A stretch of 64,000 bases of DNA from an uncultured Acidobacteriota bacterium (GTDB taxonomy: Bacteria > Acidobacteriota > Terriglobia > Terriglobales > Acidobacteriaceae): the NCBI GenBank assembly GCA_963758565.1, contig CAVWVX010000002.1, positions 202,186-266,185 of the forward strand, given 5' to 3'. The position numbers and the translations under genes are program-made. The notes beneath the pieces were generated by a model that worked only from the letters and a program-made list of their open reading frames with translations, did no database searches and was not told where the DNA came from. How positions within the stretch are numbered: the stretch's first letter is position 1; every line of letters starts with the position of its first letter. This document shows positions 10,894 through 39,155 of the stretch, piece after piece.

Positions 10894-11898
10894 TTATCCG
10901 CCGATGTGGACCATGGTGCGTGAGGCGGGGACGAAGTCGGGCTCGCCGATGTGGTGGCGGGCTTCTTTTTTCTGGATGACGGAGTGGATGAAGGATTCGA
11001 GTTCGTGGTCGGAGGCGCCGCGGCGCATTTGGGCGTGAAGGTCGTGGTCCCAGATGGAGAAGAGGCAGGTGCGGATTTTGCCGTCGCTGGTGATGCGGAT
11101 GCGGCTGCAGTGTCCGCAAAAAGGGTGGGAGACGGGAGCGATGATGCCGATTTCGCCGAGGCCGTCGTCGAAGCGGTAGCGGCGAGCGGTCTCGGAGTGG
11201 GCGTGAGGGATTTCGACGAGCGGGCGGAATTGCGCCATGCGGTCGAGGATTTCTTCGAGGGGGACGACGGTGTCGGGGGACCAGGTGCGGCCTTCCTCGA
11301 GGGGCATGAATTCGATGAAGCGGACGGTGACGCCTTCGTCGCGGGCGAATTTTCCGAAGGGGATGATTTGGTCTTCGTTGAAGCCGCGCATGAGGACGCA
11401 GTTTACTTTGAGGGGCCAGAGGCCGGCGGTGCGGGCGGCGCGGATGCCGGCGAGGACGTTGTCGTATCCGTTGGAGACGCGGGTGATGCGGGCGAAGCGG
11501 TCGGGGTCGACGGCGTCCATGGAAACGGTGACGCGGGAGAGTCCGGCGGTTTTGAGGGGGGCGGCGAGGTCGGGGAGGAGATGGCCGTTGGTGGTTAGGG
11601 CGATGTCGAGTGGCTGGGCTTCGGCGGAGTTTTCGGTCGGAGGGCGGAGTTGGGAGAGGTTGCGGACGAAATCGACGAGGCCGTTGCGGAGGAGGGGTTC
11701 GCCTCCGGTGAGGCGGATTTTGGTGACGCCCATGCCGACGAGAATGCGGGCCATGCGGAGATAGTCTTCGAAGGGAAGGTCGCCGTAGAGGGCGCCTTCG
11801 TTGCCGGTGCGGCAGTAGACACACTTGTAGTTGCAGCGGTCGGTGACGGAGATCCGCAGGTCGGTGATGGGGCGGCCGAATTTGTCGGAGAGAGGCAA
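10894..11898 (-). CDS. moaA: GTP 3',8-cyclase (molybdenum cofactor biosynthesis protein A), radical SAM
   Basis: 334 aa. N-terminus DKFGRPITDLRISVTDRCNYKCVYC (CxxxCxxC) and C-terminal CGHCSRIRITSDGKIRTCLF cluster motif. It appears to use a TTG start at 11898. Confidence 0.93.
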   Translation of the reverse strand: MPLSDKFGRPITDLRISVTDRCNYKCVYCRTGNEGALYGDLPFEDYLRMARILVGMGVTKIRLTGGEPLLRNGLVDFVRNLSQLRPPTENSAEAQPLDIALTTNGHLLPDLAAPLKTAGLSRVTVSMDAVDPDRFARITRVSNGYDNVLAGIRAARTAGLWPLKVNCVLMRGFNEDQIIPFGKFARDEGVTVRFIEFMPLEEGRTWSPDTVVPLEEILDRMAQFRPLVEIPHAHSETARRYRFDDGLGEIGIIAPVSHPFCGHCSRIRITSDGKIRTCLFSIWDHDLHAQMRRGASDHELESFIHSVIQKKEARHHIGEPDFVPASRTMVHIGG

Positions 11899-25983: not shown

Positions 25984-26021
25984 GAGGCGCGGAAATCCTG
26001 ATTCCGGCGCCTCGGTTTTTT
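25984..26021 (+). terminator. Probable rho-independent terminator of the RND operon
   Basis: gaggcgcgg..ccggcgcctc imperfect stem followed by ggTTTTTT. It overlaps the 3' end of the convergent SET gene. Confidence 0.55.
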
Positions 26022-26475
26022 ACCGGGCCTTTTTTCGTGCCTTCTTTCGTGCTGCCTTGCGCCGAAGTTTCGCCATCCACTCGCGCGAATACATTGTGCC
26101 GCGGCATTTGGGCGAGCCGCAATGGCAGGGCGCGGGATCGTCATCGTCATACAGGTTGTAATCCCAGAGCAATTCTTCTCCGGCCGCGATGTCGCGCAAG
26201 GCGAAGATGTAAGCGCGGTTTTTGACCTCATCGATCTCGCAATTGGGATCGCAGGAATGATTCAGGAAAGCTGCGATGCCAACTCCGTCGATCACAGTTT
26301 TGCCGTCCTCCAGCCCATAGAGATACGTCTTGGGCGCGTTGAGGTAAAGCCGGTCGGCCTCTTCCGGCGTTATACGCGGTCCATCGTATTCGACAATGCG
26401 CGTGCCTTTACGGATGGGAGCATTAGTGAACACTCCGGTCGAATGAATTTTTGAGGGACGGACGGCCAAGGGCAT
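26020..26475 (-). CDS. SET-domain protein-lysine methyltransferase with a Lys/Arg-rich tail
   Basis: Motifs GTRIVEYDG, FLNHSCDPNC, ELLWDYN, post-SET-like CHCGSPKCRG, then the C-terminal AKLRRKAARKKARKKAR. Confidence 0.85.
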   Translation of the reverse strand: MPLAVRPSKIHSTGVFTNAPIRKGTRIVEYDGPRITPEEADRLYLNAPKTYLYGLEDGKTVIDGVGIAAFLNHSCDPNCEIDEVKNRAYIFALRDIAAGEELLWDYNLYDDDDPAPCHCGSPKCRGTMYSREWMAKLRRKAARKKARKKAR

Positions 26476-26710
26476 ACAACTAATTTCGCACGGTTCCCCG
26501 GTTTGTAGGAAGGCGAAAAGGAAAAAATATTCTCTGCCGCGGCGAGTTTCATGCGTCCGGCTGGATTCGAAGCTGCCGATCTGCGAAAACGCCCGCCGGA
26601 TAAGGCTTTCCGGTGAAAAGATTCTTTGCAGCCGATCCCTTCGTGGTAGACTCTCAGTCCGTTGACATTGCTTGCGAATTTTGCGGCGCTAACCTGAGGG
26701 GGAGACAAAC

Positions 26711-27298
26711 ATGCGGATCATTCGTAAAAGACTTGGATTATTAGCAGCTTTGATTTTCTGTGGAGTATTGTTCAGCGCGGCCCAGAGTACAACCAGGAAA
26801 TCCAGCGCGGCTGAGGATTACTGCACCAGCACCGGAGGAGCGGTGGAAATTCGCGTTCCTTCTTATGGTACGAACGGCCCGCCGAATACCTGGCTGAAGC
26901 TCGCCGGACGGCAGGAGTTCTGCCGCTATACCGCTTCAGACCATTCGCACATTCATCTGAATCTGGAAACTCTGTTCACGCCGCAGCCTACGCTGGCGGC
27001 GCTGGCTTACTACGCAGAGATTCCGTGGAATGGTCAGGGGAATGGGAGTCCAGCTTCGTACTATTGCACGCAGCTTGGTGGAACCGATCTCTTCGGCGGG
27101 GTGAATGCCGCGGGCGGCGGATGGGTGGCTCTGGGCACGGTCGACGAAGTTCTCGACTCCTGCATCTTTCCCGACAATTCCACCATTGATTCGTGGGGAC
27201 TGTTCTATCACTCGGACGCCATCATCCGTGGCATCGATCTTTCAACAGTGCTGAAGTATGCGAATCCTTACGCCCCGGCCAAGGGCGGTTCAAAATAA
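26711..27298 (+). CDS. Secreted hypothetical protein, possibly two DUF333-like repeats
   Basis: Signal peptide MRIIRKRLGLLAALIFCGVLFSAAQS. Repeated ..YCTxxGG.. segments (EDYCTSTGGAVE; SYYCTQLGGTDL) and C.FPDNSTIDSW resemble DUF333 as I remember it. Confidence 0.5.
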   Translation: MRIIRKRLGLLAALIFCGVLFSAAQSTTRKSSAAEDYCTSTGGAVEIRVPSYGTNGPPNTWLKLAGRQEFCRYTASDHSHIHLNLETLFTPQPTLAALAYYAEIPWNGQGNGSPASYYCTQLGGTDLFGGVNAAGGGWVALGTVDEVLDSCIFPDNSTIDSWGLFYHSDAIIRGIDLSTVLKYANPYAPAKGGSK

Positions 27299-27323
27299 TA
27301 TTTTGCCGCACGTAAAATAAAAT

Positions 27324-27361
27324 GCCGCCCCGGCTGCGCTGGCAGGGGCGGCAATTTTTTT
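27324..27361. terminator. Bidirectional rho-independent terminator between convergent genes
   Basis: gccgcccc / ggggcggc stem flanked by AAAATAAAAT upstream and AATTTTTTT downstream. T-runs therefore follow the hairpin on both strands. Confidence 0.8.
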
Positions 27362-27373
27362 GTTGAGGCAGGT

Positions 27374-27919
27374 TTACTTGGTCACATCCGGTTCGTAGAC
27401 CGAGTTGCCAAAACCCTGTCTGCGGGCTGACTCCTGCGCTTGCTCGAGAGCCTTCTTCTTTGTATCGAGTTCCGCTTGCATGCGTTCGACCTGCTGCTGC
27501 TTTTGCCGCTGCCGCTCATTCCACTCGACGCAACGAGGTCCGTTACACGGGTGCGAAGCAAAGCGAATCGACTGGTTGAGCTGGTCAATTTGTTTTTGCA
27601 GATTTGCGATCTGGCTCTTTTGCGTCTGAATCTGAGACCTCCAACGTTCGCCGGATTGCTTCATTGCATTTGAACGCGCGGACACATTGCCATGTTTGGT
27701 CGATGGATTTGCCGGCGGTTGCGGAGGGGAGTTCTCCGGGATTTCCTCGTTGGTCACAACGTTGGGAGCGTCGGGATCTTTCGTCCCGGCAGCGGCTCTC
27801 TGCAATCGTTGCTGGCGCGCAACGTCGCCAAGAGAGGGAGAATCCTGACCGGCGGCGAGGGATGAGAATACCGAAATCGCGGCGACGGCAATCAAGATGA
27901 GCTTGCACTTTCTGGGCAT
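27374..27919 (-). CDS. Secreted coiled-coil hypothetical protein
   Basis: Start set to the ATG at 27919 (MPRKCKLILIAVAAISVFSSLAAGQ signal). The C-terminal half is Q/R/K-rich heptad-like (QIANLQKQIDQLNQSIRF..QQQVERMQAELDTKKKALEQAQ). Confidence 0.6.
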   Translation of the reverse strand: MPRKCKLILIAVAAISVFSSLAAGQDSPSLGDVARQQRLQRAAAGTKDPDAPNVVTNEEIPENSPPQPPANPSTKHGNVSARSNAMKQSGERWRSQIQTQKSQIANLQKQIDQLNQSIRFASHPCNGPRCVEWNERQRQKQQQVERMQAELDTKKKALEQAQESARRQGFGNSVYEPDVTK

Positions 27920-28016
27920 GGAAAAGCCCTCCGCCATCAATGCTAGTGGCAAAGAGCGCCGCAGCTCGCATTACCAACGGACCGTCGAAGGTCGGGCGCT
28001 AGGCCAATGCCCAGGG

Positions 28017-29054
28017 TCACGACAGATGTTCTGCGATCAAGGCGTCAAGCTTGGCCAGCAGGGCGTTGTTGCCCTGCCGGGGATAATTGGCCAGCTTTTC
28101 CTGATAGTGCGGCAAATTGTAGAGGAAGGAATCGACGCGCTCTTTTTCCAGCTCTTCCCAGTAAGCGCCGTAACCAGTTTTCTGCAACCAGTAGGCGTTA
28201 AAGATTTGTTCAAACTGGTGCTCGACCGGCACAGCGAGATATGGCTTGGCCAGATGCAAGGCTTCGGTGACCAGTGAAAATCCGGAGTTGGCTACGATAG
28301 CCTTCGCGTTTGTGAGGTCGTGCAAGAATCCGTCAACGGAGGGCTTCTTGTAAACGATCTTTCCCTCTTTGCCGTCCTTACCGAATCCGTAGGCGACGAA
28401 ATCGGCGCGCACCGAGCTCAGTATTTTCGCCAGAGCGGGAGCAGGAGATGTGACGTAAACCAGAATGCTTTCTCCCTGCGCCGGCCGCGCCTCAAGAATT
28501 TCCTGGCGCAGCAATGGCGGGAAGAGGAATGTGTTGCGCTTCTTCACTGGCGCGGTAAAAAAAGAAATGACCAGATAGACGTCGGCGTGTGGGGTCATGA
28601 GCCGGGTGACGAGCTTGGCGGCCGCTGCGTCGTTGCGATACTGCCGCGGATAAGACACCGTCGTGTTGGTCAGGCAATGCTGATTGTCGATGGAGATGAC
28701 CGGCAGCCCCAGGCTGCGCCCTACGTGGCAGGTTAACGGCTCGAAGTCCGTGATTACCAGATCGATCTTCCAATCGGTGGCCAGCCGCTTGAGTTGGTGG
28801 GCGCTCTTTGCCGCCTTGCCCGCGGTCAGCACGTTTTTTGCCAGCGTGCGTTCGTAGCGCACACGATTATTCACGTAGGTCAGGCGGAAGCCGAAAATTT
28901 CGGTGACCTCGAAGTCGCTGAGGTTACGCAATCCGCGGTCGAAGGAGGCGACGTGCAGCGTATGGCTTTGCTGGCGGAGGTGAGTGAGAACTTCCCGGGC
29001 GCGGGTTGAGTGCCCAGCGCCTTCGCCGTTCACACCGTAGAGAATATTTGCCAT
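28017..29054 (-). CDS. Glycosyltransferase (GT-B, MJ1255/TIGR00661-like family)
   Basis: The N-terminus MANILYGVNGEGAGHSTRAREV is characteristic of this GT family. 345 aa. It starts 33 nt downstream of the radical SAM gene on the same strand. Confidence 0.7.
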   Translation of the reverse strand: MANILYGVNGEGAGHSTRAREVLTHLRQQSHTLHVASFDRGLRNLSDFEVTEIFGFRLTYVNNRVRYERTLAKNVLTAGKAAKSAHQLKRLATDWKIDLVITDFEPLTCHVGRSLGLPVISIDNQHCLTNTTVSYPRQYRNDAAAAKLVTRLMTPHADVYLVISFFTAPVKKRNTFLFPPLLRQEILEARPAQGESILVYVTSPAPALAKILSSVRADFVAYGFGKDGKEGKIVYKKPSVDGFLHDLTNAKAIVANSGFSLVTEALHLAKPYLAVPVEHQFEQIFNAYWLQKTGYGAYWEELEKERVDSFLYNLPHYQEKLANYPRQGNNALLAKLDALIAEHLS

Positions 29055-29087
29055 GGTCGAAGCAGTATACGGCAGGCGAGATGCCAG

Positions 29088-30239
29088 CTAAGCTGAAAGC
29101 GCAGTGGCGGCGTGGTCCAGGGCTGAGAGTCTGCGGCCTGTAATCGCGGGCACAAGTTGAATCTGTACCAGGCGCGGCGCGGGAGCATTATCTTTTTTCG
29201 CCAGCAGGTTTTTTGAGGGGATGCCGGTCCGGGCGAAGGATTTTTCGCAGTCGGATGTAGATGGTCCTCGCATATTGCCTTCCAGAAAAGCTACGCCCGG
29301 GCAGCGGGTGCAGGTGGCGCCATGGGCGCATTGCGAGCAGCCGGAAAGATCGCGCAGGCGGATGGAGCGCACATCTTTCAATTGCTCGGAATTGCGCCAG
29401 ATGTCGATGAAACTTTGCTGCCTCACATTGCCGCACGATAAAGGGAAAGCCACGCAGGGATAAAACTCTCCGTAGGGGGAGACGTAACATCCGGTGTGGC
29501 CGGCACTGCAGGGCAACGAATCCATGATCTCTTCGGTGGGTGCGGGCGGAGGCGCGCAAAATTCTTCGGCGTTACCCACATAACTCTCGTCGCGAAATAG
29601 AGTCTGGAGTTCGGAGACGCCGGTTTTCAAGTCGAGGATGGAGCGGTCGCCGTCCATCATCGGAGTGATGGTCGGATCCAGCGTGTATCTGACGCCGAGT
29701 TCTTCGGCCAGCGCGCCAACGCCGCGATGGTCGTGCAAGTTCGCGGTCATGAGCACATTGGCGATCACCACTTTTAAGCCTTGCGCTTTCAGAAACCGAA
29801 TGGCGTCGACGGAGCGCTGCAGGGAGCCAGCAATTTTCGTGATGGCATCGTGCACTTCCGGGCGGTGAGAATAGATGCTGATCTGAATGGATTCCACGCC
29901 GAGATCGCGGAGGCGCGCGGCCTGCGGTTCGCGAATCAGCACGGCGTTCGTTTTCAACTTGATGCAGAAGGTGAGAGCGCGCGCGTGCTCCAGTATTTCA
30001 AAAAAATCCTTGCGCATGAAGATCTCACCGCCACTCAGGGTGAGAATGAAAACGCCGGCCTCGGCCATTTCCGACAGCAGGTTCTTGATTTCAAGCGTGC
30101 TCATTTCGCCATGATCGTCGTGATCGAGATAACAGTGAACGCACTGCTCATTGCAGCGGTAGGTGAGATCGAGTTGCGCGCTCAAAGGCACGCCCAGCTT
30201 CAGGGCCCGGTTGCTCATCTCCTGCAGCAGGGCGCTCAT
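29088..30239 (-). CDS. Radical SAM / SPASM-domain peptide-modifying enzyme
   Basis: CNEQCVHCY (CxxxCxxC) near the N-terminus. C-terminal SPASM-type Cys pattern CSAGHTGCYVSPYGEFYPCV..SGCSQCAHGATCTRCPG. ATGA overlap with the upstream PqqD gene. Confidence 0.88.
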   Translation of the reverse strand: MSALLQEMSNRALKLGVPLSAQLDLTYRCNEQCVHCYLDHDDHGEMSTLEIKNLLSEMAEAGVFILTLSGGEIFMRKDFFEILEHARALTFCIKLKTNAVLIREPQAARLRDLGVESIQISIYSHRPEVHDAITKIAGSLQRSVDAIRFLKAQGLKVVIANVLMTANLHDHRGVGALAEELGVRYTLDPTITPMMDGDRSILDLKTGVSELQTLFRDESYVGNAEEFCAPPPAPTEEIMDSLPCSAGHTGCYVSPYGEFYPCVAFPLSCGNVRQQSFIDIWRNSEQLKDVRSIRLRDLSGCSQCAHGATCTRCPGVAFLEGNMRGPSTSDCEKSFARTGIPSKNLLAKKDNAPAPRLVQIQLVPAITGRRLSALDHAATALSA

Positions 30240-30556
30240 CGAGACTCCTGTCGAGGTGCGGTGGATTGCCCAATGGGTTGCTCGGAGAGCAACAGAATCC
30301 CGTGCTCAGCGAGGTCCTTGGCCAGGGCGGAAGCGTCCTGTAAAGCTTCTTGCGGCTGAACGTCGAACGCGGAACAAATCTTATGCTCAACGATTTCATC
30401 GAGCGGGGTGGAGCCATCGGCAGCCTGCCACAGAATGGTTGCCGTAGGATTCAGCGTGAACAGCGTAGAACCCTGTGCCGACATGACCAGCATTTCTTCG
30501 CCCAGCTTTCGTGCGGCAATGCGCGGACTGCGAGCGATATAAAGTTTCTTGGTCAT
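30236..30556 (-). CDS. PqqD-family RiPP recognition element / peptide chaperone
   Basis: ARKLGEEMLVMSAQGSTLFTLNPTATILWQAADGSTPLDEIVEHK.. matches the PqqD pattern. I prefer the ATG at 30556, which forms ATGA with the kinase stop; an alternative GTG lies at 30571. Confidence 0.8.
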   Translation of the reverse strand: MTKKLYIARSPRIAARKLGEEMLVMSAQGSTLFTLNPTATILWQAADGSTPLDEIVEHKICSAFDVQPQEALQDASALAKDLAEHGILLLSEQPIGQSTAPRQESR

Positions 30557-31368
30557 CGAATCATCTCCCACACCCGCGCGTCAGGAACAAACGTGAGCCG
30601 GTAGGTTGGAACACGCTGCACGAAATCGCAGGCAGTTTGAAATACATGCTGAACCAACTCGGGGTCGCTGGCAAAAAATAAAACGTTCGTTAATAGTTCG
30701 CGGCCAGCCTCCGTAACAGGAATTGGATCGATCCGATTCTCATTCCCTTTTGCCAGCAGGTACAGCGCCGCAATGGGTGCTGAAGTGTTCTCTCCCAGCT
30801 TTGTGAGCTCTCCAACGAAGGGCGTGCCGAAGGCGATGTAACCCTCGCCCCGCTCGCGCACGTAGGACATCTCATCGGTTAAAAGGGTGGCGTCAGGGGG
30901 AGCGAAGCGGGAAATGGTCGTCTTCCCGGCCCCAGAAACACCGGCAAATAAAAATGCCCTTCCGTTCCGGATCGCGCTGGCGGCGTGAAGCAAAAATCCC
31001 CCCTGCTGTGCCAGTGCCAGGGTATGGACGATGCGCAATACGCAGTCCATGGAGTAGGGATTCGCAAGCTGCTCAATTGTCGCGATGCGCGAAGCTGGAT
31101 CCCATTCGGCGCGAAAATCAGCGCGCTGCATCAGCCAGCGCCCGGCTTCGCGACGGACGGTGACCTCGGTATGCCGCTCGGCGAAGGTGGATTGCACGAG
31201 TTCAATGTTGAATTCAAATTCAGCCGTGGTTTCCGCCGTCACGAACCCGGCGTATCGTTCTTGCAGCAGTGCAAGAAAGTCCGAGGAGGCCGTGTTCACC
31301 TTAACGGCAACGCCACCCACGGCGACCACGACGCTGTAGCGTTCGACCTGGAGTTCTACTGCGGGCAC
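30553..31368 (-). CDS. HPr kinase-related (HprK-like) P-loop kinase
   Basis: LLHAASAIRNGRAFLFAGVSGAGKTTISRF P-loop region, typical of the HprK-related kinases found next to PqqD/radical SAM genes. GTG start overlapping the upstream gene by 13 nt. Confidence 0.7.
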   Translation of the reverse strand: MPAVELQVERYSVVVAVGGVAVKVNTASSDFLALLQERYAGFVTAETTAEFEFNIELVQSTFAERHTEVTVRREAGRWLMQRADFRAEWDPASRIATIEQLANPYSMDCVLRIVHTLALAQQGGFLLHAASAIRNGRAFLFAGVSGAGKTTISRFAPPDATLLTDEMSYVRERGEGYIAFGTPFVGELTKLGENTSAPIAALYLLAKGNENRIDPIPVTEAGRELLTNVLFFASDPELVQHVFQTACDFVQRVPTYRLTFVPDARVWEMIR

Positions 31369-31874
31369 GAAATTTCCTTGGAGTTCAATTTTCGGCTGAA
31401 TCGTAGTATGCGATGGGCAAACACCATGGCCCGCGCAGCCGGAACCGCATGCCGGATAATTGTCGCCGTCATTCCTTGAAAAAAGGTCAACGCGGCCGGG
31501 ATTGGAATCAGTCTTCCCGCCCGCACCACATAGGCGACGCGTCCCATCAATTCACTGGCAAACACCGGAGGATCTGGATCTGGCAGGGCATCCCCTTGCG
31601 TGATCCAGTGCCGATTGTTCTCCTTGCCCTTCACTGCCACAACCCGGTGGGCACACAGTGTGCCATGCCGCCCGACAACTACCACTTGGCCGGGAAGAAT
31701 GTCGTCCGGCAAGACTCTCTCGACGATCAGAGTGTCTTCCGGCCAAATGGCCGGCAACATGCTGCGTCCTGTCGCGCTAAGGCGCAACGAACCGGCCGAG
31801 CGCAAAACCTCGCCGGCAAGATCGCATTTCACGACGGAGGCAGGTTCAACCGTCGAGTAAATAGTTTGCCTCAT
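31356..31874 (-). CDS. S24/S26-family (LexA / signal-peptidase-like) serine peptidase, candidate leader peptidase
   Basis: ATGRSMLPAIWPEDTLIVERV (Ser nucleophile context G-x-S-M-x-P..GD) and WITQGDALPDPD. Hydrophobic C-terminal segment. Its ATG overlaps the stop of the precursor ORF (ATGA). Confidence 0.65.
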   Translation of the reverse strand: MRQTIYSTVEPASVVKCDLAGEVLRSAGSLRLSATGRSMLPAIWPEDTLIVERVLPDDILPGQVVVVGRHGTLCAHRVVAVKGKENNRHWITQGDALPDPDPPVFASELMGRVAYVVRAGRLIPIPAALTFFQGMTATIIRHAVPAARAMVFAHRILRFSRKLNSKEISCPQ

Positions 31875-32038
31875 GACCTCGAAACGATGTTGCAGCCGCT
31901 GGAGGTAGGATCGGTTTTCCCGCAGTTCAGCGCAGAAGTAACAAAGACTTGTTCGTAGCGAAAGCTGGGCTTGTCGTAGGGCTTCTTCTCGCTTGCCGCG
32001 GTGCGCGGGTTTTCGTCGAATGATTGATTTGCAGCCAT
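31871..32038 (-). CDS. Candidate RiPP precursor peptide (55 aa), not in the supplied ORF track
   Basis: Manual reverse-complement translation gives MAANQSFDENPRTAASEKKPYDKPSFRYEQVFVTSALNCGKTDPTSSGCNIVSRS*. GAGGAA lies 8-9 nt upstream of the ATG at 32038. The TGA overlaps the ATG of the peptidase gene. It lies 16 nt downstream of the 712-aa gene. Confidence 0.6.
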   Translation of the reverse strand: MAANQSFDENPRTAASEKKPYDKPSFRYEQVFVTSALNCGKTDPTSSGCNIVSRS

Positions 32039-32054
32039 GGTTATTATTCCTCGC

Positions 32055-34193
32055 TTACTTTAAACCAGCTTGTGACGCTTGAATCGCACATCCCCCGGCA
32101 CCCGACGTCCCACAAGGCTGGTTGCCCAAGGTAGAGAAGTAGACTTGGGAACCGCCCGCCGAAGTCACGGTATTATCGATGATCACGGCACTGGCGCCGC
32201 CGCTCACGGGCAGAGCCGCAGTGCTCAGCAATCCCACGTTCGTCCACTGCAGACCCGAGGAACCATCGTTGGTCACCACGCCAGCCGTCGTACTAAAAGT
32301 GGGAATGGACCCGCCGGAGGTTCCGTGTGCTGTTACCAACTGAACGTAATTATTGGCATCAAGAATCTTGGTGTTAAGCGCGTAGGCATGATTGGCCTGC
32401 CAGGCGGCGGGCGTGAAAGCCGATTGCGGTCCCTGATTCAGCCACTGTACCGAGCCATCGCTAGTGGTGCCGCCAAGGCTCGCGGTCCAGGTGGGAACGG
32501 ACGATCCAGAGGTTCCTGCAACGCTTACTACCTCAATCTGGAAGTGGCTATCGAGAACTTCCTGGCCTACTGTATATGCATTGGAGGGTTGCCAGGGCGT
32601 GTTCTTAAAATTGAAGATGCATCCGCCTGATGCGCACGACGAGGCAGCTCCAAGGTTCTGCACGCTCATGAAAATCCATTCCGTCGGTCCGCCAGAGACA
32701 TTCGGATTCAGAAAATCAGTGACTGGAGAGCATGCCGGGCTTCCACTGCTCGCAAGCACTGGTCCAGCTGTGCCGAAACCGCTTAAAGAACTGGCAGCAA
32801 TGGGCACGCGATAAAGAATTGGGGGGCCGCCCGTGTTTCCGCAAACGTAAATATCTCCCGTCGCATTTAAAGAAGTTCGATAGGCGCTGTCAAAGCCCGC
32901 TAAATAGAGTGGATTCGGCTTTGTAGGAGAAATCGAACTGGCACCCACAATGGCTTTCTGTCCGGTATTGCCGGCTGGAAAATCCGCAACCAGCGCATAC
33001 ACGGCCGAGCAGTCAGATCCGCCCGTGCAACCGGCGCTGCCGTCGCTCGTGGCAAAGGCATAAACCAGTTCAGCCGCCGGATCAACCGCCGGGCCATCGA
33101 TCATTCCGGGCCCGCCATCCAGTGACTTGGAGAAATCCAGTTGGCCGGAAGCGGCCACAAAGGCAGTGTCAGGTCCGACCCGGTACAACAAGCCCCCGCG
33201 GTCCGAGACAAAGGCGAGTCCTGAAGTTGGGTCATACGCCGGACTGGAAAGCGGCGTGGGCAGCAACGCGTTCACCTGGACCGGCCAACCGGCGCTGCCT
33301 ACTTCAGCGGGCACGCCATCGAAAACCGGCGTAATTTTGTGCAGCCACCCGGCATCATCCCCCACAAAAGCAATATCGAGACCGTAAACATAGAAGACGG
33401 AGGATCCCGTATCGGCGTTCGGATTTCCGCTCGAGTCTTTCAGCGGCTCGGTGGTCATGCAAGGGGCGCTGCACGTGGGGTACTGCGCGTTGGTGACTCG
33501 CGCTAGAGTCATGGGATTGCTGACGGTCTCCGAGGTGGAAGCGGCCCATTTCAGCAAAACCAAGGTGGCATTGCCGGAGGGATCGCTCTGCACAAATGCC
33601 ACTTGGGTTCCGTCCATCGAGAGAACGGGCGAAGTGGTGACGGTTCCGCCAGCGGTGTTGTAGGCCCAATAAACTGAAGGCACCGTGCCGCTGCAGCTGG
33701 AGTACAGATTGTCGTACGCGACTATATTAGCCTGGGTTGACGATCCCGCCAGTCCAGTTCCGTAAACCACGAAATCCGGTTGCGCCGCGCTGGCGCAATT
33801 GGCGCTGGTAATGGTGAACGCGAACTTTGCTGGATAATTTCCCGCGCCCACACTTGCGCCGGAGTTCATGTTCTCGGCCCAGTCGCGCTTAAGTTTCTTT
33901 TTGCCAGATAAGCTCGCCCGCTGCAGCTCTTCAGTTACTGCTCGGTCTACCGCTTGCGGCGACTTGGCTGACATGCGCAACTGTTGCTGCCGGTAGCGGA
34001 AATCCCGCTCCAGCAACTTTGCCCGCTCCGCATTGGCTGGCTTGGAGAAGATCACGCGGTTCTGGCTCCAATCGCTGATCACCGGGGTGGTATTTTTCAA
34101 ATCAGGCGAAGTTTGCGCAAAAACTGCCCCACTAAAAACGAACGTTGCAAGCAGCCAGACTCCCAGCCGGAGCTGGCGTTGCTGGTTTCTCAT
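32055..34193 (-). CDS. Large secreted hypothetical protein (beta-rich, Ser/Gly/Thr/Ala-rich) with two C-terminal ~40-aa repeats
   Basis: Signal peptide MRNQQRQLRLGVWLLATFVFSGAVFAQ. Repeats GTSGSSVPTWTASLGGTTSDGSVQW and GTSGGSIPTFSTTAGVVTNDGSSGLQW. No enzymatic motif recognised. Confidence 0.7.
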   Translation of the reverse strand: MRNQQRQLRLGVWLLATFVFSGAVFAQTSPDLKNTTPVISDWSQNRVIFSKPANAERAKLLERDFRYRQQQLRMSAKSPQAVDRAVTEELQRASLSGKKKLKRDWAENMNSGASVGAGNYPAKFAFTITSANCASAAQPDFVVYGTGLAGSSTQANIVAYDNLYSSCSGTVPSVYWAYNTAGGTVTTSPVLSMDGTQVAFVQSDPSGNATLVLLKWAASTSETVSNPMTLARVTNAQYPTCSAPCMTTEPLKDSSGNPNADTGSSVFYVYGLDIAFVGDDAGWLHKITPVFDGVPAEVGSAGWPVQVNALLPTPLSSPAYDPTSGLAFVSDRGGLLYRVGPDTAFVAASGQLDFSKSLDGGPGMIDGPAVDPAAELVYAFATSDGSAGCTGGSDCSAVYALVADFPAGNTGQKAIVGASSISPTKPNPLYLAGFDSAYRTSLNATGDIYVCGNTGGPPILYRVPIAASSLSGFGTAGPVLASSGSPACSPVTDFLNPNVSGGPTEWIFMSVQNLGAASSCASGGCIFNFKNTPWQPSNAYTVGQEVLDSHFQIEVVSVAGTSGSSVPTWTASLGGTTSDGSVQWLNQGPQSAFTPAAWQANHAYALNTKILDANNYVQLVTAHGTSGGSIPTFSTTAGVVTNDGSSGLQWTNVGLLSTAALPVSGGASAVIIDNTVTSAGGSQVYFSTLGNQPCGTSGAGGCAIQASQAGLK

Positions 34194-34466
34194 CGGTTCT
34201 CTCCTGATGCCTCGGCCCCAAACAAATCGAGCGCCCAGATTCTCATGCTTGCTGGCTGGTTCTCACCTTAGCGATCGAGCGGAAAATAATCATACACCCG
34301 GGCCTCAGGAGTAATTTCTGAAATTTCGCAGTTTAATTGGAGTTTTCCACAGGAATTCCGCACGTGAAAACCTGCTGCGGGAGGTCGATCCCACACGCAG
34401 CTTCCGGCGCTTTTCGTCGTGCCGGGAACCTCTCCTCGGCCTAAGTGCTTGTGCTCACCCCGAGTT

Positions 34467-35438
34467 TCACGCCGGGATCGCCGAGGTTGGAATCTGCTGC
34501 GCTTTATTCCTAAGTTCTTCAAAGAGGATCGTGCTCAGGTAGCGTTCTCCGAACGAGGGCAATACCACCACAATCAGCTTCCCGGCATTCTCCGCCCGGC
34601 GCGCCACTTGCAATGCCGCCGTCACCGCAGCGCCTGAAGATATTCCGACAAACAATCCTTCTTCCAGTGGAAGACGTCGCGCCATGCGAATGGCTTCATC
34701 GTTCGTGACCGTGATGACTTCATCAATGTAGTCGCGCCGCAAGATGCTGGGAACAAAGCCCGCGCCAATTCCCTGGATTTTATGCGGCGATGGTTTTCCT
34801 CCCGAAAGCACGGCGCTGTCAGCGGGCTCTACCGCAATCGCCTTGAACGACGGTTTCTTCGGCTTGATGTATTCGCAAACCCCGGTGATGGTTCCCCCGG
34901 TGCCGACGCCGGAAATCAGAATATCGACACGCCCGTCAGTGTCGTTCCAGATTTCAGGACCGGTGGTTTCGAAGTGTATCTTGGGATTGGCGGCGTTATC
35001 GAACTGTTGCAGCATGTAGCTATTGGGAGTGTTTCCTAACAACTCCTGCGCTTTGGCTATGGCACCCTTCATTCCGTTGGGACCAGGTGTAAGAACGATC
35101 TCTGCACCGAAAGCCAGCAGCAGCACGCGCCGCTCCATGCTCATGGTTTCCGGCATCACCAGGATGAGCCGGTAACCTTTCACCGCTGCTACAAAGGCCA
35201 GGCCGATTCCGGTATTGCCGCTGGTAGGCTCAATCAGCACGGTTTTTCCCGGGGCAATTTTCCCCGCCCGCTCCGCCTCGGTAACCATGCTTACGCCGAT
35301 GCGGTCTTTCACGCTGCCCACTGGATTCTGACTTTCCAGCTTGGCCACCACTTCCGCCACGCAGCCGCCGGTCACTTTGTTCAGCCGTACCAGCGGAGTG
35401 TGCCCGATCAGTTCGGTAACGTCTTTGGCAATCTTCAT
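34467..35438 (-). CDS. cysK: Cysteine synthase A (O-acetylserine sulfhydrylase)
   Basis: Start trimmed to the ATG at 35438 ([22 protein letters not shown]). PLP-lysine context [11 protein letters not shown]. Also [18 protein letters not shown] and GTGGTITG. Confidence 0.92.
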
Positions 35439-35473
35439 GGCGAGTGCTCTCCCTTCATCGCTTCGATCCCGGC

Positions 35474-36028
35474 TTACTTTGTCATGACGGTCTTCGCTGC
35501 CTCGTCGGTGCGAAGCGGCAATGCCAGAGCATCCTGCACAGACTTCGGCAGCTTGTCGGCCTGCGCCACCAACAAACTTACCTGCCACATCTGAGTATCG
35601 GATAGCACGGGCTTGAAGCCGGGCATCCCCGTGAGGCGAATACCATTCGCCACTTTCCAGTAGCTTTCACCCGGCTCGTCGTCGGTGACGCCCCGGCCTT
35701 CCATCAATTTTGGCGGCCGCGGAAACATTCCGGTCGCAATCAGCGTCTCTTTTTGCGCCGGAAGTCCGTGGCATACGGCACAATGCTCGCGGTAGATTTG
35801 CGCTCCCGCGGCCAGATTGGATTCATCTCCTTGAATGGGAACTGTCTTCGGCATCTCGCGCTGCACTCGCGCGTTCAGTGCTTGATGCGCCAGCTTCTTT
35901 TCAAATGGCATGGCCTGGGCAGAAGTCGCCACTGGAGCCTGCCCCGTCGCAAAGTAAAAATAAACGCCGGCCAGAACCCCAACCACCCCCAAAATGATTC
36001 CGAAAACCAGCGTGCCGAACATGCGCAT
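35474..36028 (-). CDS. Membrane-anchored monohaem c-type cytochrome
   Basis: N-terminal [25 protein letters not shown]. Single CAVCHG haem-binding motif. Distal Met candidates are present downstream. Confidence 0.8.
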
Positions 36029-36299
36029 GCAAAGCTCCTTGCCTGGGTCAGAACCGGTAAAAGTATGAAACCGGAGATGTGATTCTAGCTGATTTGATCG
36101 TCAAGGCGCATTTTTGCCGGATTGAATTACGCGATAGGAAAGATCGAGAGAAAGCCCCGGAAATCATGCGGAGGGGCTGATTTCTGGGGCGAGGAGCCGG
36201 AACACGTATCTCCCGATCAGACTGGGTTTGAAGCAGCAAGCCATCGACCAAGAAACCCGCCAAGGCGTACGAGCAGCGGGACGGTGCTCGTCGAACTTG

Positions 36300-39155
36300 C
36301 TACACCCCGACCGTCTCTTCCCGCGGTTTCCCCGCCAGCAACTGCCTCAACACGTACTGCAGAATCCCGCCGTTAGCGTAGTACAGCGCCTCCTGCGGAG
36401 TATCGATGCGCACCAGCGCTTCAAACTCTTTGGGCTGGTCTTTGCCGCCTCCGCCGCTGTTGGCTGCTGACGATGCGCGAACTTTCACTTTCTGTCCCGC
36501 CGCGTAACGGTCGATCAGCCCGCGGATGCCGGTGATCTCAAACACTTCTTCGCCGGTCAGGCCATGGGTTTCGGCATTCTCTCCCGCAAGAAATTGCAAC
36601 GGCAGCACTCCCATTCCCACCAGGTTCGAGCGGTGAATGCGTTCGTAGCTTTCGGCGATCACGGCGGAGACGCCCAGCAGGCGCGGCCCCTTCGCTGCCC
36701 AGTCACGAGATGAGCCCGAGCCGTATTCTTTGCCCGCCAGAATGATCAGCGGCGTGCCCTCCGCAATATATTTCTCCGACGCGTCGAAGATCGACATCTC
36801 CTGATTGGTCGGCAGATGGCGGGTGTAGCCGCCTTCCACACTCACTAGCTTATTTCGTAAGCGGACGTTGGCGAACGTTCCCCGCACCATCACTTCGTGA
36901 TTGCCGCGCCGCGAGCCGTACGAGTTAAAGTCTGCCGGCTTTACGCCATGCTCCTGCAAGTATTTTCCTGCCGGTCCATCCTTCTTGATCGAGCCTGCGG
37001 GAGAAATGTGGTCGGTGGTCACGCTGTCGCCCAGTACCGCCAGCACCCGCGCGCCTTTAATCTCGTTTACAGCCGAAGGCTGGATCTTCATGTCATCGAA
37101 ATAAGGCGCGCGCCGAATGTAGGTGGAATCTTCTTCCCACTCGTAAGTTTCGCCCTTGGGCACCGAGAGTCCGCGCCAGCGCTCGTCGCCGTCGAAGACT
37201 CCGGCGTAACTCTTGGTAAACATTTCGGCGGTCACTGATTTCTCCACCGCTTGTTCCACTTCACTTTGCGTTGGCCAGATGTCCTTGAGATAAACCGGCT
37301 TGCCATCCTTACCTTTGCCGATCGCGTCTTTGCGCAGGTCAATATCGATACGCCCCGCCAGCGCGAAGGCCACCACCAGCGGCGGCGACATCAAATAATT
37401 TGCCCGCACCTCGGAGTTGATGCGTCCTTCAAAGTTGCGATTGCCCGAAAGCACCGAAGCCACCACCAGCTCTTTTTCTTCAATCGCCTCCGAAACTTCT
37501 GTGGGCAGCGGCCCCGAGTTGCCGATGCACGTGGTGCATCCGTAGCCGACGATATTGAACTTGAGTTCGTCCAGATAAGGACGCAGTCCGGCATTCTCCA
37601 GATAATCGCGAACCACTTTTGACCCCGGCGCCAGCGATGCCTTCACCCAGGCCGGCAGCGATAGTCCTTTCTCGACAGCTTTTTTGGCCAGAAGTCCCGC
37701 GGCCATCATGACCGAAGGATTCGAAGTGTTCGTGCACGATGTGATCGCCGCGATCACCACGCTGCCATGCTTCAACGACTTCTTCACGCTGACCGGGACG
37801 TGTTCCGCCACACTGTCATCCTGTACCCCAACCGCCGTGGGGCTACCGCCTTCCTGCTCCCAGCGATCCATCTGCCGCGGCGCGCTGCCTGGAGACGCAT
37901 TTCCTGAAGCAGCTGGAATCGCCACATTCGCCGCCGCTGCCGTCTTCGGCTTGATCAACGAGGGCAACGCTTTGTTGAACGATTCTCCCGCCTGCGACAG
38001 AAGGACGCGATCCTGCGGACGCTTCGGCCCCGCCAGGCTCGGTTCAACTGTGCCGAGATCAAGCGACAGCAGCTCGGAGTACTCCGCCTCCGGCGTGTGC
38101 TCGTCATGGAACAATCCCTGCTCGCGGCAGTAAGCCTCCACCAACGCAACTTGCTCCGCGCTCCGCCCGCTGAGTTTCAAATACTTCAACGTCTCTTTAT
38201 CTACCGGAAAGATTCCACATGTCGCCCCGTACTCCGGAGACATATTTGCAATCGTCGCCCGATCCGCCAGCGGCAAATCGCGCAGTCCGGGTCCAAAGTA
38301 TTCAACAAACTTGCCGACCACGCCATGCTTCCGCAACATCTCCGTAATAGTCAGGACCAAATCCGTAGCAGTCGCGCCTTCGGGCAGTTTCCCCGTCAAC
38401 TTCACCCCCACCACCAGCGGAATCAACATGGAAACCGGCTGCCCCAACATCGCCGCCTCCGCCTCAATCCCCCCCACTCCCCACCCCAAAACCCCCACCC
38501 CATTTATCATTGTCGAATGTGAGTCGGTGCCGACTAACGTGTCGGGGCTGGCGACGGGTTTGCCGTTTTCATCTTTTACGAAGACGACGCGGGCGAGGTA
38601 TTCGAGGTTCACCTGGTGGACGATGCCGGTGTCGGGGGGGACGATGGCGAGGTTGCGGAATCCGGTTTGGCCCCAGCGGAGGAAGGAGTAACGCTCTTTA
38701 TTGCGCTGGAATTCGAGCAGGGCGTTCATGTCGAAAGCTGAAGAGGTGCCGAACTCATCCACTTGCACGGAGTGGTCGATGACTAACTCGACCGGCTGCA
38801 GAGGATTGATGAGGGTGGGGTCGCCGCCGAGTTGCTGCATGGCATCGCGCATGGCGGCCAAGTCGACCACGCACGGAACGCCGGTGAAATCCTGCAGGAG
38901 GACGCGGCTGGGAGTGAAGGCGATTTCTTTATCCGGCTTGGAATTTTTGTTCCACGCGGCCATGGAGCGCACGTCTTCTTTCTTGACGTTGCGGCCATCT
39001 TCGGTGCGCAGAAGGTTCTCCAGCAGTATGCGCAGGGAGTAGGGAAGATGTTTGGTGGAGATGCCTTGCTTATCGAGGGCGTCGAGGCGATAAATTTCGT
39101 ATTCTTTGTTGCCGACTTTGAGGGTGGCGCGGGAGTTAAAACTATTCAGCGACAT
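36300..39155 (-). CDS. acnA: Aconitate hydratase A
   Basis: 951 aa. MSLNSFNSRATLKVGNKEYEIYRL.. N-terminus, Fe-S ligand contexts ITSCTNTSNP and GCTTCIGNSG, and the C-terminal swivel domain. Confidence 0.95.
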   Translation of the reverse strand: MSLNSFNSRATLKVGNKEYEIYRLDALDKQGISTKHLPYSLRILLENLLRTEDGRNVKKEDVRSMAAWNKNSKPDKEIAFTPSRVLLQDFTGVPCVVDLAAMRDAMQQLGGDPTLINPLQPVELVIDHSVQVDEFGTSSAFDMNALLEFQRNKERYSFLRWGQTGFRNLAIVPPDTGIVHQVNLEYLARVVFVKDENGKPVASPDTLVGTDSHSTMINGVGVLGWGVGGIEAEAAMLGQPVSMLIPLVVGVKLTGKLPEGATATDLVLTITEMLRKHGVVGKFVEYFGPGLRDLPLADRATIANMSPEYGATCGIFPVDKETLKYLKLSGRSAEQVALVEAYCREQGLFHDEHTPEAEYSELLSLDLGTVEPSLAGPKRPQDRVLLSQAGESFNKALPSLIKPKTAAAANVAIPAASGNASPGSAPRQMDRWEQEGGSPTAVGVQDDSVAEHVPVSVKKSLKHGSVVIAAITSCTNTSNPSVMMAAGLLAKKAVEKGLSLPAWVKASLAPGSKVVRDYLENAGLRPYLDELKFNIVGYGCTTCIGNSGPLPTEVSEAIEEKELVVASVLSGNRNFEGRINSEVRANYLMSPPLVVAFALAGRIDIDLRKDAIGKGKDGKPVYLKDIWPTQSEVEQAVEKSVTAEMFTKSYAGVFDGDERWRGLSVPKGETYEWEEDSTYIRRAPYFDDMKIQPSAVNEIKGARVLAVLGDSVTTDHISPAGSIKKDGPAGKYLQEHGVKPADFNSYGSRRGNHEVMVRGTFANVRLRNKLVSVEGGYTRHLPTNQEMSIFDASEKYIAEGTPLIILAGKEYGSGSSRDWAAKGPRLLGVSAVIAESYERIHRSNLVGMGVLPLQFLAGENAETHGLTGEEVFEITGIRGLIDRYAAGQKVKVRASSAANSGGGGKDQPKEFEALVRIDTPQEALYYANGGILQYVLRQLLAGKPREETVGV

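Follow-up and report, generated by a model that had tools for sequence, protein, structure and literature searches.

The locus considered here is a run of seven closely packed genes on the minus strand (28017-34193) of a 64,000-nucleotide (nt) stretch of contig CAVWVX010000002.1 from an uncultured Acidobacteriota bacterium, the whole of which is referred to below as the window. A PqqD protein encoded beside a radical SAM (rSAM) enzyme raises the question of whether these genes mature a ribosomally synthesized peptide with post-translational modifications (RiPP), which of them belong to the pathway, and what kind of peptide is made. The best explanation overall, held with somewhat more than even confidence, is a five-gene RiPP maturation cassette that combines an rSAM enzyme, a kinase and a leader peptidase. 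A first-pass annotation had described a RiPP-like operon with a product that could be cross-linked, phosphorylated and/or glycosylated, and this remains the best reading. The seven open reading frames (ORFs) lie exactly where they had been placed, with the same overlaps and gaps:

32055-34193, minus strand: gene for a secreted protein of 712 amino acids (aa)
31871-32038, minus strand: predicted precursor gene, 55 aa
31356-31874, minus strand: gene for a signal peptidase I-like (SpI-like) peptidase, 172 aa
30553-31368, minus strand: gene for a ScmC-family HprK-like kinase, 271 aa
30236-30571, minus strand: PqqD gene, 111 aa (106 aa from the ATG at 30556, which is the likelier start)
29088-30239, minus strand: rSAM/SPASM gene, 383 aa
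28017-29054, minus strand: gene for a GT-B glycosyltransferase, 345 aa

In this order, the genes are joined by a 16-nt gap, overlaps of 4, 13, 4 (19 with the GTG start) and 4 nt, and a 33-nt gap.

The membership of the cassette was assessed in 80 loci of species-representative genomes, whose kinases share 55-71% identity with that of the window, and in 80 further loci from metagenomes, and the window proteins were mapped onto all 160. The order precursor-peptidase-kinase-PqqD-rSAM is kept in approximately 80 genome and 80 metagenome loci, with kinase identities of 50-77%, and the flanking genes vary. Presence was counted in those 66 genome loci whose sequence extends 2.6 kb or more to both sides:

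rSAM: 66 of 66, by definition of the evaluable set
PqqD: 66 of 66
peptidase: 65 of 66
small ORF (precursor): 63 of 66
712-aa protein: 41 of 66, always directly upstream
PF14907 nucleotidyltransferase: 18 of 66
M48 metallopeptidase: 18 of 66
glycosyltransferase: 10 of 66

Because of these counts, the conserved core comprises five genes, namely those for the precursor, peptidase, kinase, PqqD and rSAM, accompanied in the window by two variable companions. The seven-gene operon first proposed therefore stands for its five core genes, but not for the glycosyltransferase and the 712-aa protein as conserved members. The first-pass annotation had also named the neighbourhood of a small ORF as the point on which its RiPP reading would stand or fall, and homologous kinase, PqqD and rSAM genes adjoin a homologous small ORF in 63 of the 66 loci. 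The locus occupies a fixed chromosomal position and is syntenic and vertically inherited in Acidobacteriota. Homologues of the kinase number more than 6,000 in the protein collection searched, and the syntenic cassette is present in at least 80 species-representative genomes.

Two departures from this arrangement were observed. Locus L048 (7983-8798 and upstream) holds a decayed cassette, in which a large, oppositely oriented gene takes the place of the precursor and peptidase and the kinase Walker A motif reads GVSEAGKTT (Gly to Glu). A distant high-GC variant with kinases 35-39% identical to that of the window (L102 3154-4673 and L113 6553-9959) has the order peptidase-kinase-PqqD-rSAM(-NTP_transf_5) and a divergently transcribed methyltransferase gene upstream; no recognisable precursor ORF was found upstream in either of these two loci. 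A search with an alignment of 6 distant kinases returned mostly the same family.

The 55-aa ORF (MAANQSFDENPRTAASEKKPYDKPSFRYEQVFVTSALNCGKTDPTSSGCNIVSRS) is preceded by a GAGGA ribosome-binding site and has homologous small ORFs at 76 genome loci and more than 50 metagenome loci. Across 74 distinct DNA sequences of orthologues, the three codon positions have nucleotide entropies of 0.45 / 0.37 / 1.18, the pattern left by purifying selection on a translated ORF. An alignment of 117 unique homologues, all chosen as fitting the core pattern, reveals a common plan in which a variable N-terminus of approximately 15 residues is followed by K-K-P-Y-x-K-P-x-F-R-x-E-x-V-F-[VE]-T-x-A-L-x and then by the core. 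Four leader residues (Y, P, F and A) and four core residues (C, K, the second C and the C-terminal S) are invariant in 117/117, and the Cys of the C-G-K motif falls exactly 18 residues after the Tyr in every sequence. The loop between the two Cys residues spans 8-10 residues and the tail after the second Cys 6-9 residues. Position -4 from the second Cys is Thr in 92/117 and position -3 is Gln or Glu in 96/117. In the window precursor, these positions correspond to Y21, P24, F32, A36, C39, K41, T45, C49 and S55, and the sequence divides as follows:

31967..31978, minus strand: predicted leader recognition motif Y21-D-K-P24 (YxxP) within KKPYxKPxFRxExVF; Y and P in 117/117
31931..31945, minus strand: predicted leader/core junction F32-V33-T34-S35-A36; F32 and A36 invariant, T34 in 105/117
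31874..31924, minus strand: predicted core peptide with C39-G-K41, T45, C49 and the C-terminal S55, from the alignment of 117

The hidden ORF had been put forward as the precursor at the outset, and its invariant peptide features in 117 homologues, coding signature and ribosome-binding site together identify it, at the level of sequence, as a genuine RiPP precursor.

The leader can be compared with those of the linear polyphosphorylated peptides (LPPs) of Bacillota, described by Popov et al. (Nat Commun 2026, PMC13381572) from the lppA-K-B-S-D-N cluster of Paenibacillus alginolyticus. The LPP leader consensus is YxxPxVLxHQxIxFET/xxS, where the slash marks the cleavage site, and [Y/W]xxP is the motif bound by the RiPP recognition elements (RREs) of lasso peptides and LPPs (PMC13381572); the same motif is present in the window leader. 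The data would allow cleavage either after T34 or after the invariant A36. F32-V33-T34 matches the F-E-T that precedes the cut in LppA, and the V33 position is occupied by Glu in 47/117 homologues (approximately 40%), most of which thus read literally F-E-T. Cleavage after A36 would fit the -1/-3 rule of S26 peptidases, and A36 lies 12 residues from the proline of YxxP, the same distance as in the LppA site.

The PqqD and rSAM/SPASM assignments of the first-pass annotation hold, the former through PF05402 (49 bits) and the latter through Radical_SAM PF04055 and SPASM PF13186. In the PDB, the PqqD protein is most similar to the lasso B1 proteins TfuB1 and TbiB1, and a profile of its family matches LppB (18 bits), another LPP RRE (23 bits) and also the RREs that accompany the SSN cluster 3 peptidases considered below. 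On these matches, the protein can be classed as a discrete RRE. The rSAM enzyme carries a CX3CX2C motif and ten C-terminal Cys residues, including C-x2-C-x5-C-x2-C, all of which are conserved in 76 orthologues:

30132-30155, minus strand: CX3CX2C motif C29/C33/C36 of the rSAM enzyme

Among enzymes of known structure, it comes closest to the thioether-forming SkfB (E 2.8e-13), and it aligns over its full length with MftC (129 bits). It scores below the cut-off of every NCBIfam equivalog, including ScmE, GeoRSP, MftC, PqqE, AlbA, StsB and WgkB, with scores against cut-offs of 82 vs 850 for AlbA, 100 vs 625 for StsB and 69 vs 300 for SkfB. A RiPP with RRE-guided rSAM modification is very likely on this evidence, and the suggestion that the cross-link is a thioether falls slightly short of an even chance. 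A second rSAM gene in the window (10894-11898, minus strand) encodes an ordinary MoaA (Radical_SAM and Mob_synth_C) and is unrelated to the cassette.

The peptidase shows weak matches to archaeal-type signal peptidase I (TIGR02228, 36.7 bits) and to Peptidase_S24. Its best PDB matches are human SEC11A/SEC11C, with which the SM-P and HR(V) catalytic motifs align, and G36-x-S38-M-x-P41, H76-R77, G94-D95 and D101 are invariant in 68 orthologues:

31761-31763, minus strand: predicted catalytic S38
31647-31649, minus strand: predicted catalytic H76

By these motifs, the protein is assigned to the S26B Ser/His enzymes of the SipW/Sec11 type. It had first been described as a LexA/signal-peptidase-like Ser peptidase; the signal-peptidase type is borne out by the S26B Ser/His motifs, but a LexA-like enzyme (S24, Ser/Lys) is ruled out by the alignment of the invariant Ser/His motifs with SEC11A/C. 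The N-terminal transmembrane anchor found in SipW and Sec11 is missing. A hidden Markov model (HMM) of the peptidase family was compared with sequences from Supplementary Data 1 of PMC13381572, and scored 92-106 bits against sequence similarity network (SSN) cluster 3 peptidases (Acidobacteriota, Myxococcota, Chloroflexota), 56-76 bits against three LPP-type cluster-1 peptidases including LppS (75.9 bits), and 33-41 bits against housekeeping SipW. LppS is an RRE-dependent leader peptidase (PMC13381572), and it is likely that the SpI-like peptidase of the cassette also removes the leader. Peptidases of the S26/S24 families go unmentioned in a review of RiPP leader proteases.

The closest relatives of the window peptidase belong to the unstudied 'SSN cluster 3', a group of SpI-like peptidases that occur with 'other RREs' and come from Acidobacteriota, Myxococcota, Chloroflexota and others (Supplementary Data 1 of PMC13381572). 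Three loci with peptidases of this type (L167 5112-8423, L168 5043-8471 and L169 5318-8429) contain a sister cassette in the order PqqD, Radical_SAM (approximately 420 aa), small ORF, ScmC PF27840 (approximately 300 aa) and SpI-like peptidase. An NTP_transf_5 gene lies near the cassette in L167 and L168, where the peptidase gene is also followed by one for a giant Peptidase_C25 protein, and L167 has an ABC transporter gene nearby. The sister small ORFs have a YxxP leader, an AVLGxCK (C-K) motif, two to three Cys residues and a C-terminal Ser or Thr (for example ...KKLYVKPKMRRIELRPQEAVLGACKANSSTVGGGAGGQCNPVSCQAHGS).

The kinase is annotated in Pfam as PF27840 'ScmC' and has weak NCBIfam matches to ScmC (53.2 bits), HprK_rel_A (E 6e-7) and HprK_rel_B, together with a match to the P-loop of phosphoenolpyruvate carboxykinase (PEPCK). 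The Walker A motif G143-VSGAGKT-T151 (GVSGAGKTT; 30916-30942, minus strand) is invariant, as are H128, K149 and D165-E166 among the orthologues. A His-Lys-Asp-Asp motif is catalytic in lasso-peptide kinases (PMC9266682), and the H/K/D/E residues of the window kinase match it. The HprK-related P-loop kinase of the first-pass annotation is thus retained on its Walker A motif, its H/K/D/E motif and its weak HprK_rel_A/B matches; the HMM check suggested there for HprK-related and GeoRSP families was positive for the former, if weakly so, but the rSAM enzyme falls below the GeoRSP cut-off. When the PDB was searched with the kinase sequence and profile, PEPCK P-loops were matched marginally and HprK/P was not among the entries retrieved. 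An AlphaFold2 model, based on an alignment of only 41 sequences (at least 66% identical), has a mean predicted local distance difference test score (pLDDT) of 52.7, and the best Foldseek matches of this low-confidence model are ATP-dependent PEPCK structures. ATP-dependent PEPCKs share the HprK fold.

The role suggested for the kinase comes by analogy with related systems. HprK-like kinases of paeninodin-type lasso clusters phosphorylate the C-terminal Ser of the linear precursor on its side chain, and this Ser is 'extremely conserved' in kinase-bearing lasso clusters (PMC9266682); in LPPs, LppK polyphosphorylates Ser3 of the core (PMC13381572). On this analogy, there is about an even chance that the kinase phosphorylates the C-terminal Ser of the cassette precursor. 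The nucleotidyltransferase-like PsmN is needed to add one or more hexoses to phospho-Ser, and a recognisable glycosyltransferase may replace PsmN in a cyanobacterial cluster (PMC6993621).

This precedent bears on the variable companions. The GT-B glycosyltransferase assignment holds (PF13528, 429 bits, MJ1255/VC2487 family), as first annotated. In L004 (10336-10386) and L071 (2128-2184), the rSAM gene is directly followed by remnants, 17-19 aa long, that match the start of the window glycosyltransferase at its N-terminus with 100% identity, and so the glycosyltransferase gene has been lost repeatedly. It is an accessory gene or a mere neighbour, and its participation in the pathway is doubtful. 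More divergent lineages have a PF14907 NTP_transf_5 gene (E 2e-58) in the place that follows the rSAM gene; no homologue of this gene was found anywhere in the window by tblastn. In L063 (10447-12192), directly downstream of the rSAM gene, an NTP_transf_5 domain is fused to a SAM-dependent methyltransferase domain, which may point to additional tailoring, for instance methylation, in some lineages. A Ste24-like M48 metallopeptidase (a membrane protein of approximately 460-500 aa) is often encoded between the rSAM/glycosyltransferase genes and the p192/SET genes, for example in L022 (10462-11850) and in approximately 18 genome loci besides L022; it is absent from the window.

The 712-aa protein, predicted at first pass to be secreted, indeed possesses an N-terminal signal-peptide-like hydrophobic segment. 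It has no Pfam match, and its AlphaFold2 model (pLDDT 81.9) consists of a beta-propeller followed by C-terminal beta-rich repeats, with structural matches to generic propellers only. In six metagenome loci (L093, L106, L136, L147, L161 and L162), its gene is found on the downstream side of the rSAM gene. Where a genome has no copy at the cassette, paralogues with 56% identity occur in exopolysaccharide (EPS)/exosortase loci (L084/L085 7001-9142 and L086 7001-9166), beside GT2, EpsH, EpsI and UDP-GlcNAc 2-epimerase. Given its presence in 41/66 loci and these paralogues in EPS loci, the protein was downgraded from a candidate part of the machinery to a frequent neighbour. Some members of its family exceed 900 aa and contain an ice-binding-like domain (PF11999).

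From gene content, synteny, precursor conservation, catalytic motifs and the homology to LppS and to lasso RREs, a pathway is inferred, including the order of its steps. The PqqD protein would bind the precursor through the KKPYxKP leader motif. The rSAM/SPASM enzyme would then make one or two Cys-derived thioether cross-links via Cys39 and/or Cys49, for which the candidate acceptors are Thr45, near-invariant and four residues before the second Cys, and the invariant Lys41. The ScmC-family kinase would phosphorylate or polyphosphorylate Ser55, as PadeK and PsmK do on lasso precursors, and in some lineages the PF14907 nucleotidyltransferase would place a sugar on the phosphate, as the window glycosyltransferase may also do. 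Finally, the cytoplasmic SpI-like peptidase, an LppS homologue, would cut at F-V-T-S-A, leaving a modified peptide of approximately 19-21 residues.

Several observations weigh against this pathway. The chemistry is predicted from the genes, and the rSAM reaction is not assignable because every curated family cut-off is missed. The kinase is only distantly HprK-like, PF07475 is not among its Pfam matches at E <= 0.01, and the model of its structure is of low quality (pLDDT 52.7). Among the sister precursors, one has a terminal Thr in place of Ser. Glycosylation is optional at best, because the glycosyltransferase and nucleotidyltransferase are absent from most loci of the window's lineage. Nor does the cassette include genes for export, immunity or regulation, as that of a secreted antimicrobial RiPP usually would.

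The kinase step admits a different explanation, in which the ScmC-like protein primes an internal Ser or Thr for elimination and Cys addition in a lanthionine-like manner, or serves as an ATP-dependent scaffold or chaperone for the rSAM enzyme, and the C-terminal Ser functions in, for example, recognition by the rSAM enzyme or the peptidase. A lanthionine-like or scaffold role would suit the Thr four residues before the second Cys (92/117), and an internal target would parallel the LPP kinase, which acts on the internal Ser3 and not on the C-terminus. However, no lyase or cyclase is present, and the rSAM enzyme would be redundant if the rings were formed in this way. The kinase is only remotely related to the HprK-type lasso kinases and the Thr-ending sister precursor would also be accommodated, but a C-terminal Ser in 117/117 precursors is the signature of kinase-associated lasso precursors, and PF14907 enzymes, which decorate phosphate, co-occur with the cassette. 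Such a role for the ScmC-like protein is therefore unlikely, and phosphorylation at the C-terminal Ser is preferred.

A second alternative is that the product is a cofactor or small metabolite derived from the peptide, comparable to pyrroloquinoline quinone (PQQ) or mycofactocin, which would contain few of the core residues and serve a housekeeping function. The pairing of PqqD with a PqqE/MftC-like rSAM enzyme, including its full-length alignment with MftC, points in this direction, but the curated PqqE and MftC cut-offs are all missed. The periplasmic beta-propeller is a frequent neighbour, and quinoprotein dehydrogenases are propellers; however, it is missing from approximately 40% of loci and has paralogues in EPS loci. 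Vertical inheritance among housekeeping genes (PALP, aconitase, SET) and the absence of an exporter or immunity gene would likewise be expected of a cofactor pathway, yet no oxidoreductase, glycosyltransferase or peptidase set typical of PQQ or mycofactocin is seen downstream. The precursor itself is unlike those of cofactors, since its invariant positions extend over approximately 17 core residues, its loops vary and its C-terminal Ser is fixed. A cofactor is accordingly very unlikely in comparison with a modified peptide.

It is highly improbable that the peptidase is a dedicated SipW-like signal peptidase for the 712-aa protein and that the small ORF is incidental or regulatory. SipW is encoded beside its substrates, the cassette peptidase belongs to S26B, and a 16-nt gap separates the end of the 712-aa gene from the small ORF, a linkage that survives changes of gene order. 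The peptidase, however, has no membrane anchor and is closer to LppS than to SipW, the 712-aa protein has an ordinary signal peptide, and the cassette is intact without the 712-aa gene in approximately 40% of loci. The small ORF, moreover, is under strong purifying selection and carries the RRE-binding motif. A chance juxtaposition of genes with a non-coding small ORF, to which only the weak HMM scores of the peptidase and kinase could be seen to point, has a negligible probability and is already refuted by synteny over approximately 160 loci, the codon-position signature and the invariant peptide features.

The five-gene RiPP cassette is flanked by housekeeping genes, which encode a cysteine-synthase-like PALP enzyme, aconitase, cytochrome c, a SET-domain protein, an AcrB pump, MoaA, DNA ligase and ribonucleotide reductase, and its relatives are found in metagenome-assembled genomes (MAGs) of Candidatus Sulfotelmatobacter, Acidoferrum, Solibacter and Bryobacteraceae. 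These surroundings and the acidobacterial MAG relatives therefore place it on the core chromosome of an acidobacterium. No ABC exporter was present among the 20 larger flanking ORFs scanned against Pfam. An Rfam search of window positions 26000-36500 returned zero regulatory elements, and the match counts of promoter and terminator scans were no higher than expected from shuffled sequence. One sigma-70-like match, TTAACA-17-AATAAT (10/12; window 32349-32377, minus strand), lies within the 3' part of the 712-aa gene, approximately 310 nt upstream of the precursor start, and could be an internal cassette promoter. In the lineage of the window, the interval from the cassette to the SET-domain gene retains two genes for small secreted proteins, at 27374-27952 (minus strand) and 26711-27298 (plus strand). 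One protein combines a signal peptide with a coiled coil and a weak OmpH-like match, and the other is Cys-rich and contains DUF333.

A physiological role, rather than that of an antibiotic spread by horizontal gene transfer (HGT), is suggested because no exporter, immunity gene or regulator accompanies the cassette and its chromosomal position is fixed. A link between the product and the cell envelope or exopolysaccharide is hinted at by the propeller neighbour and by the speculation of the LPP authors (PMC13381572). Taken together, the cassette may tentatively represent a widespread, largely acidobacterial RiPP class with an rSAM-cross-linked CGK...Thr-Gln..Cys core, a C-terminal Ser that is phosphorylated or polyphosphorylated and in some lineages bears a sugar, and leader removal by a signal-peptidase-like enzyme, acting as a conserved physiological or cell-envelope factor and not as an antibiotic. 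Acidobacteriota rank with the most abundant bacteria of soils, and their peptide chemistry has been little explored. With more than 6,000 kinase homologues and at least 80 species-representative genomes carrying the cassette, any product would be environmentally widespread. The cassette also provides a first functional hypothesis for the ScmC protein family (PF27840), and the precursor alignment yields precise, testable predictions as to which Cys, Lys, Thr and Ser residues matter and where the leader ends.

Among known systems, the LPP family is defined by a SpI-like peptidase, an RRE and an HprK-like kinase (PMC13381572), and the cassette resembles it in several respects. Both leaders have the form KKxYxxP...F-E-T-like, with the window leader in register with the LPP motif, the peptidase is homologous to LppS, and the RRE is a discrete PqqD-like protein. 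Nucleotidyltransferases provide a further likeness, in that NTP transferases are typical tailoring genes of paeninodin-like and LPP clusters (PMC13381572) and sister lineages of the cassette have one of the PF14907 type. The window kinase, with its weak HprK_rel_A/B matches and H/K/D/E motif, may be orthologous to LppK. The differences are also clear. Radical SAM goes unmentioned in PMC13381572 and LPPs lack an rSAM enzyme, whereas rSAM/SPASM is a core gene here. LPPs are phosphorylated on Ser3 of the core, where the present precursors have Cys or Leu and no conserved Ser. An MsbA-like exporter and the LppN nucleotidyltransferase are part of the LPP core but are both absent from the window, and LPP cores are long and rich in Gly, Asn and Pro, without a CGK...C...S pattern. 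Finally, LPPs are patchily distributed in Bacillota and prone to HGT, whereas the window locus is syntenic and vertical in Acidobacteriota.

The paeninodin/pseudomycoidin lasso systems (PadeK, ThcoK, PsmK; PsmN) share a YxxP leader, a PqqD-like B1 protein, an HprK-like kinase and a conserved C-terminal Ser, and the phosphate is optionally glycosylated in the lasso system by a nucleotidyltransferase-like enzyme or a glycosyltransferase. The cassette, however, lacks the macrolactam cyclase (C) and the B2 cysteine protease and has a Ser/His leader peptidase and an rSAM/SPASM core modifier instead. None of the seven gene products matched the lasso C or B2 families in NCBIfam and Pfam scans, and all seven are assigned otherwise, in agreement with the first-pass annotation.

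The kinase/PqqD/rSAM trio resembles, by its family matches, the SCM cassette defined in silico in TIGRFAMs/NCBIfam (ScmC TIGR04249, ScmD TIGR04248, ScmE/ScmF TIGR04250/04251), which likewise contains a ScmC-family protein, a PqqD homologue and rSAM/SPASM, and the kinase and the PqqD protein have ScmC and ScmD, respectively, as their best NCBIfam matches. The SCM cut-offs are nevertheless missed (ScmC 53.2 vs 125, ScmD 24.4 vs 100, ScmE 98.2 vs 400, ScmF 59.1 vs 400), and SCM has two rSAM genes, whereas the window cassette has one, plus a SpI-like peptidase. The sister cassette differs in gene order, in its larger rSAM enzyme and kinase, and in its longer cores with three Cys residues. Sactipeptides and ranthipeptides (SkfB, AlbA, PapB, CteB) also combine an rSAM/SPASM maturase, an RRE and a Cys-containing core, and AlbA and StsB align with the window enzyme over the full length. 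This enzyme lies outside all curated maturase families, however, the RRE is discrete rather than fused, and a kinase and SpI-like peptidase are unknown in those classes.

The proposal of an undescribed RiPP class can thus be kept in part. The combination of peptidase, RRE and HprK-like kinase already defines the LPPs, but the rSAM-containing version, its stereotyped CGK...C...S-COOH precursor and its product are uncharacterised, with counterparts of the rSAM-containing version and precursor, in the literature consulted, only in the unstudied accession rows of the PMC13381572 supplement and in the related in-silico SCM cassette. Two RiPP logics that were until now examined apart come together in this cassette, RRE-guided rSAM cross-linking on the one hand and, on the other, the HprK-type phosphorylation with signal-peptidase-like removal of the leader that was described for LPPs in 2026. 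If the proposed pathway is true, radical-SAM peptide chemistry would here be united for the first time with the module for phosphorylation and processing known from LPPs and paeninodin.

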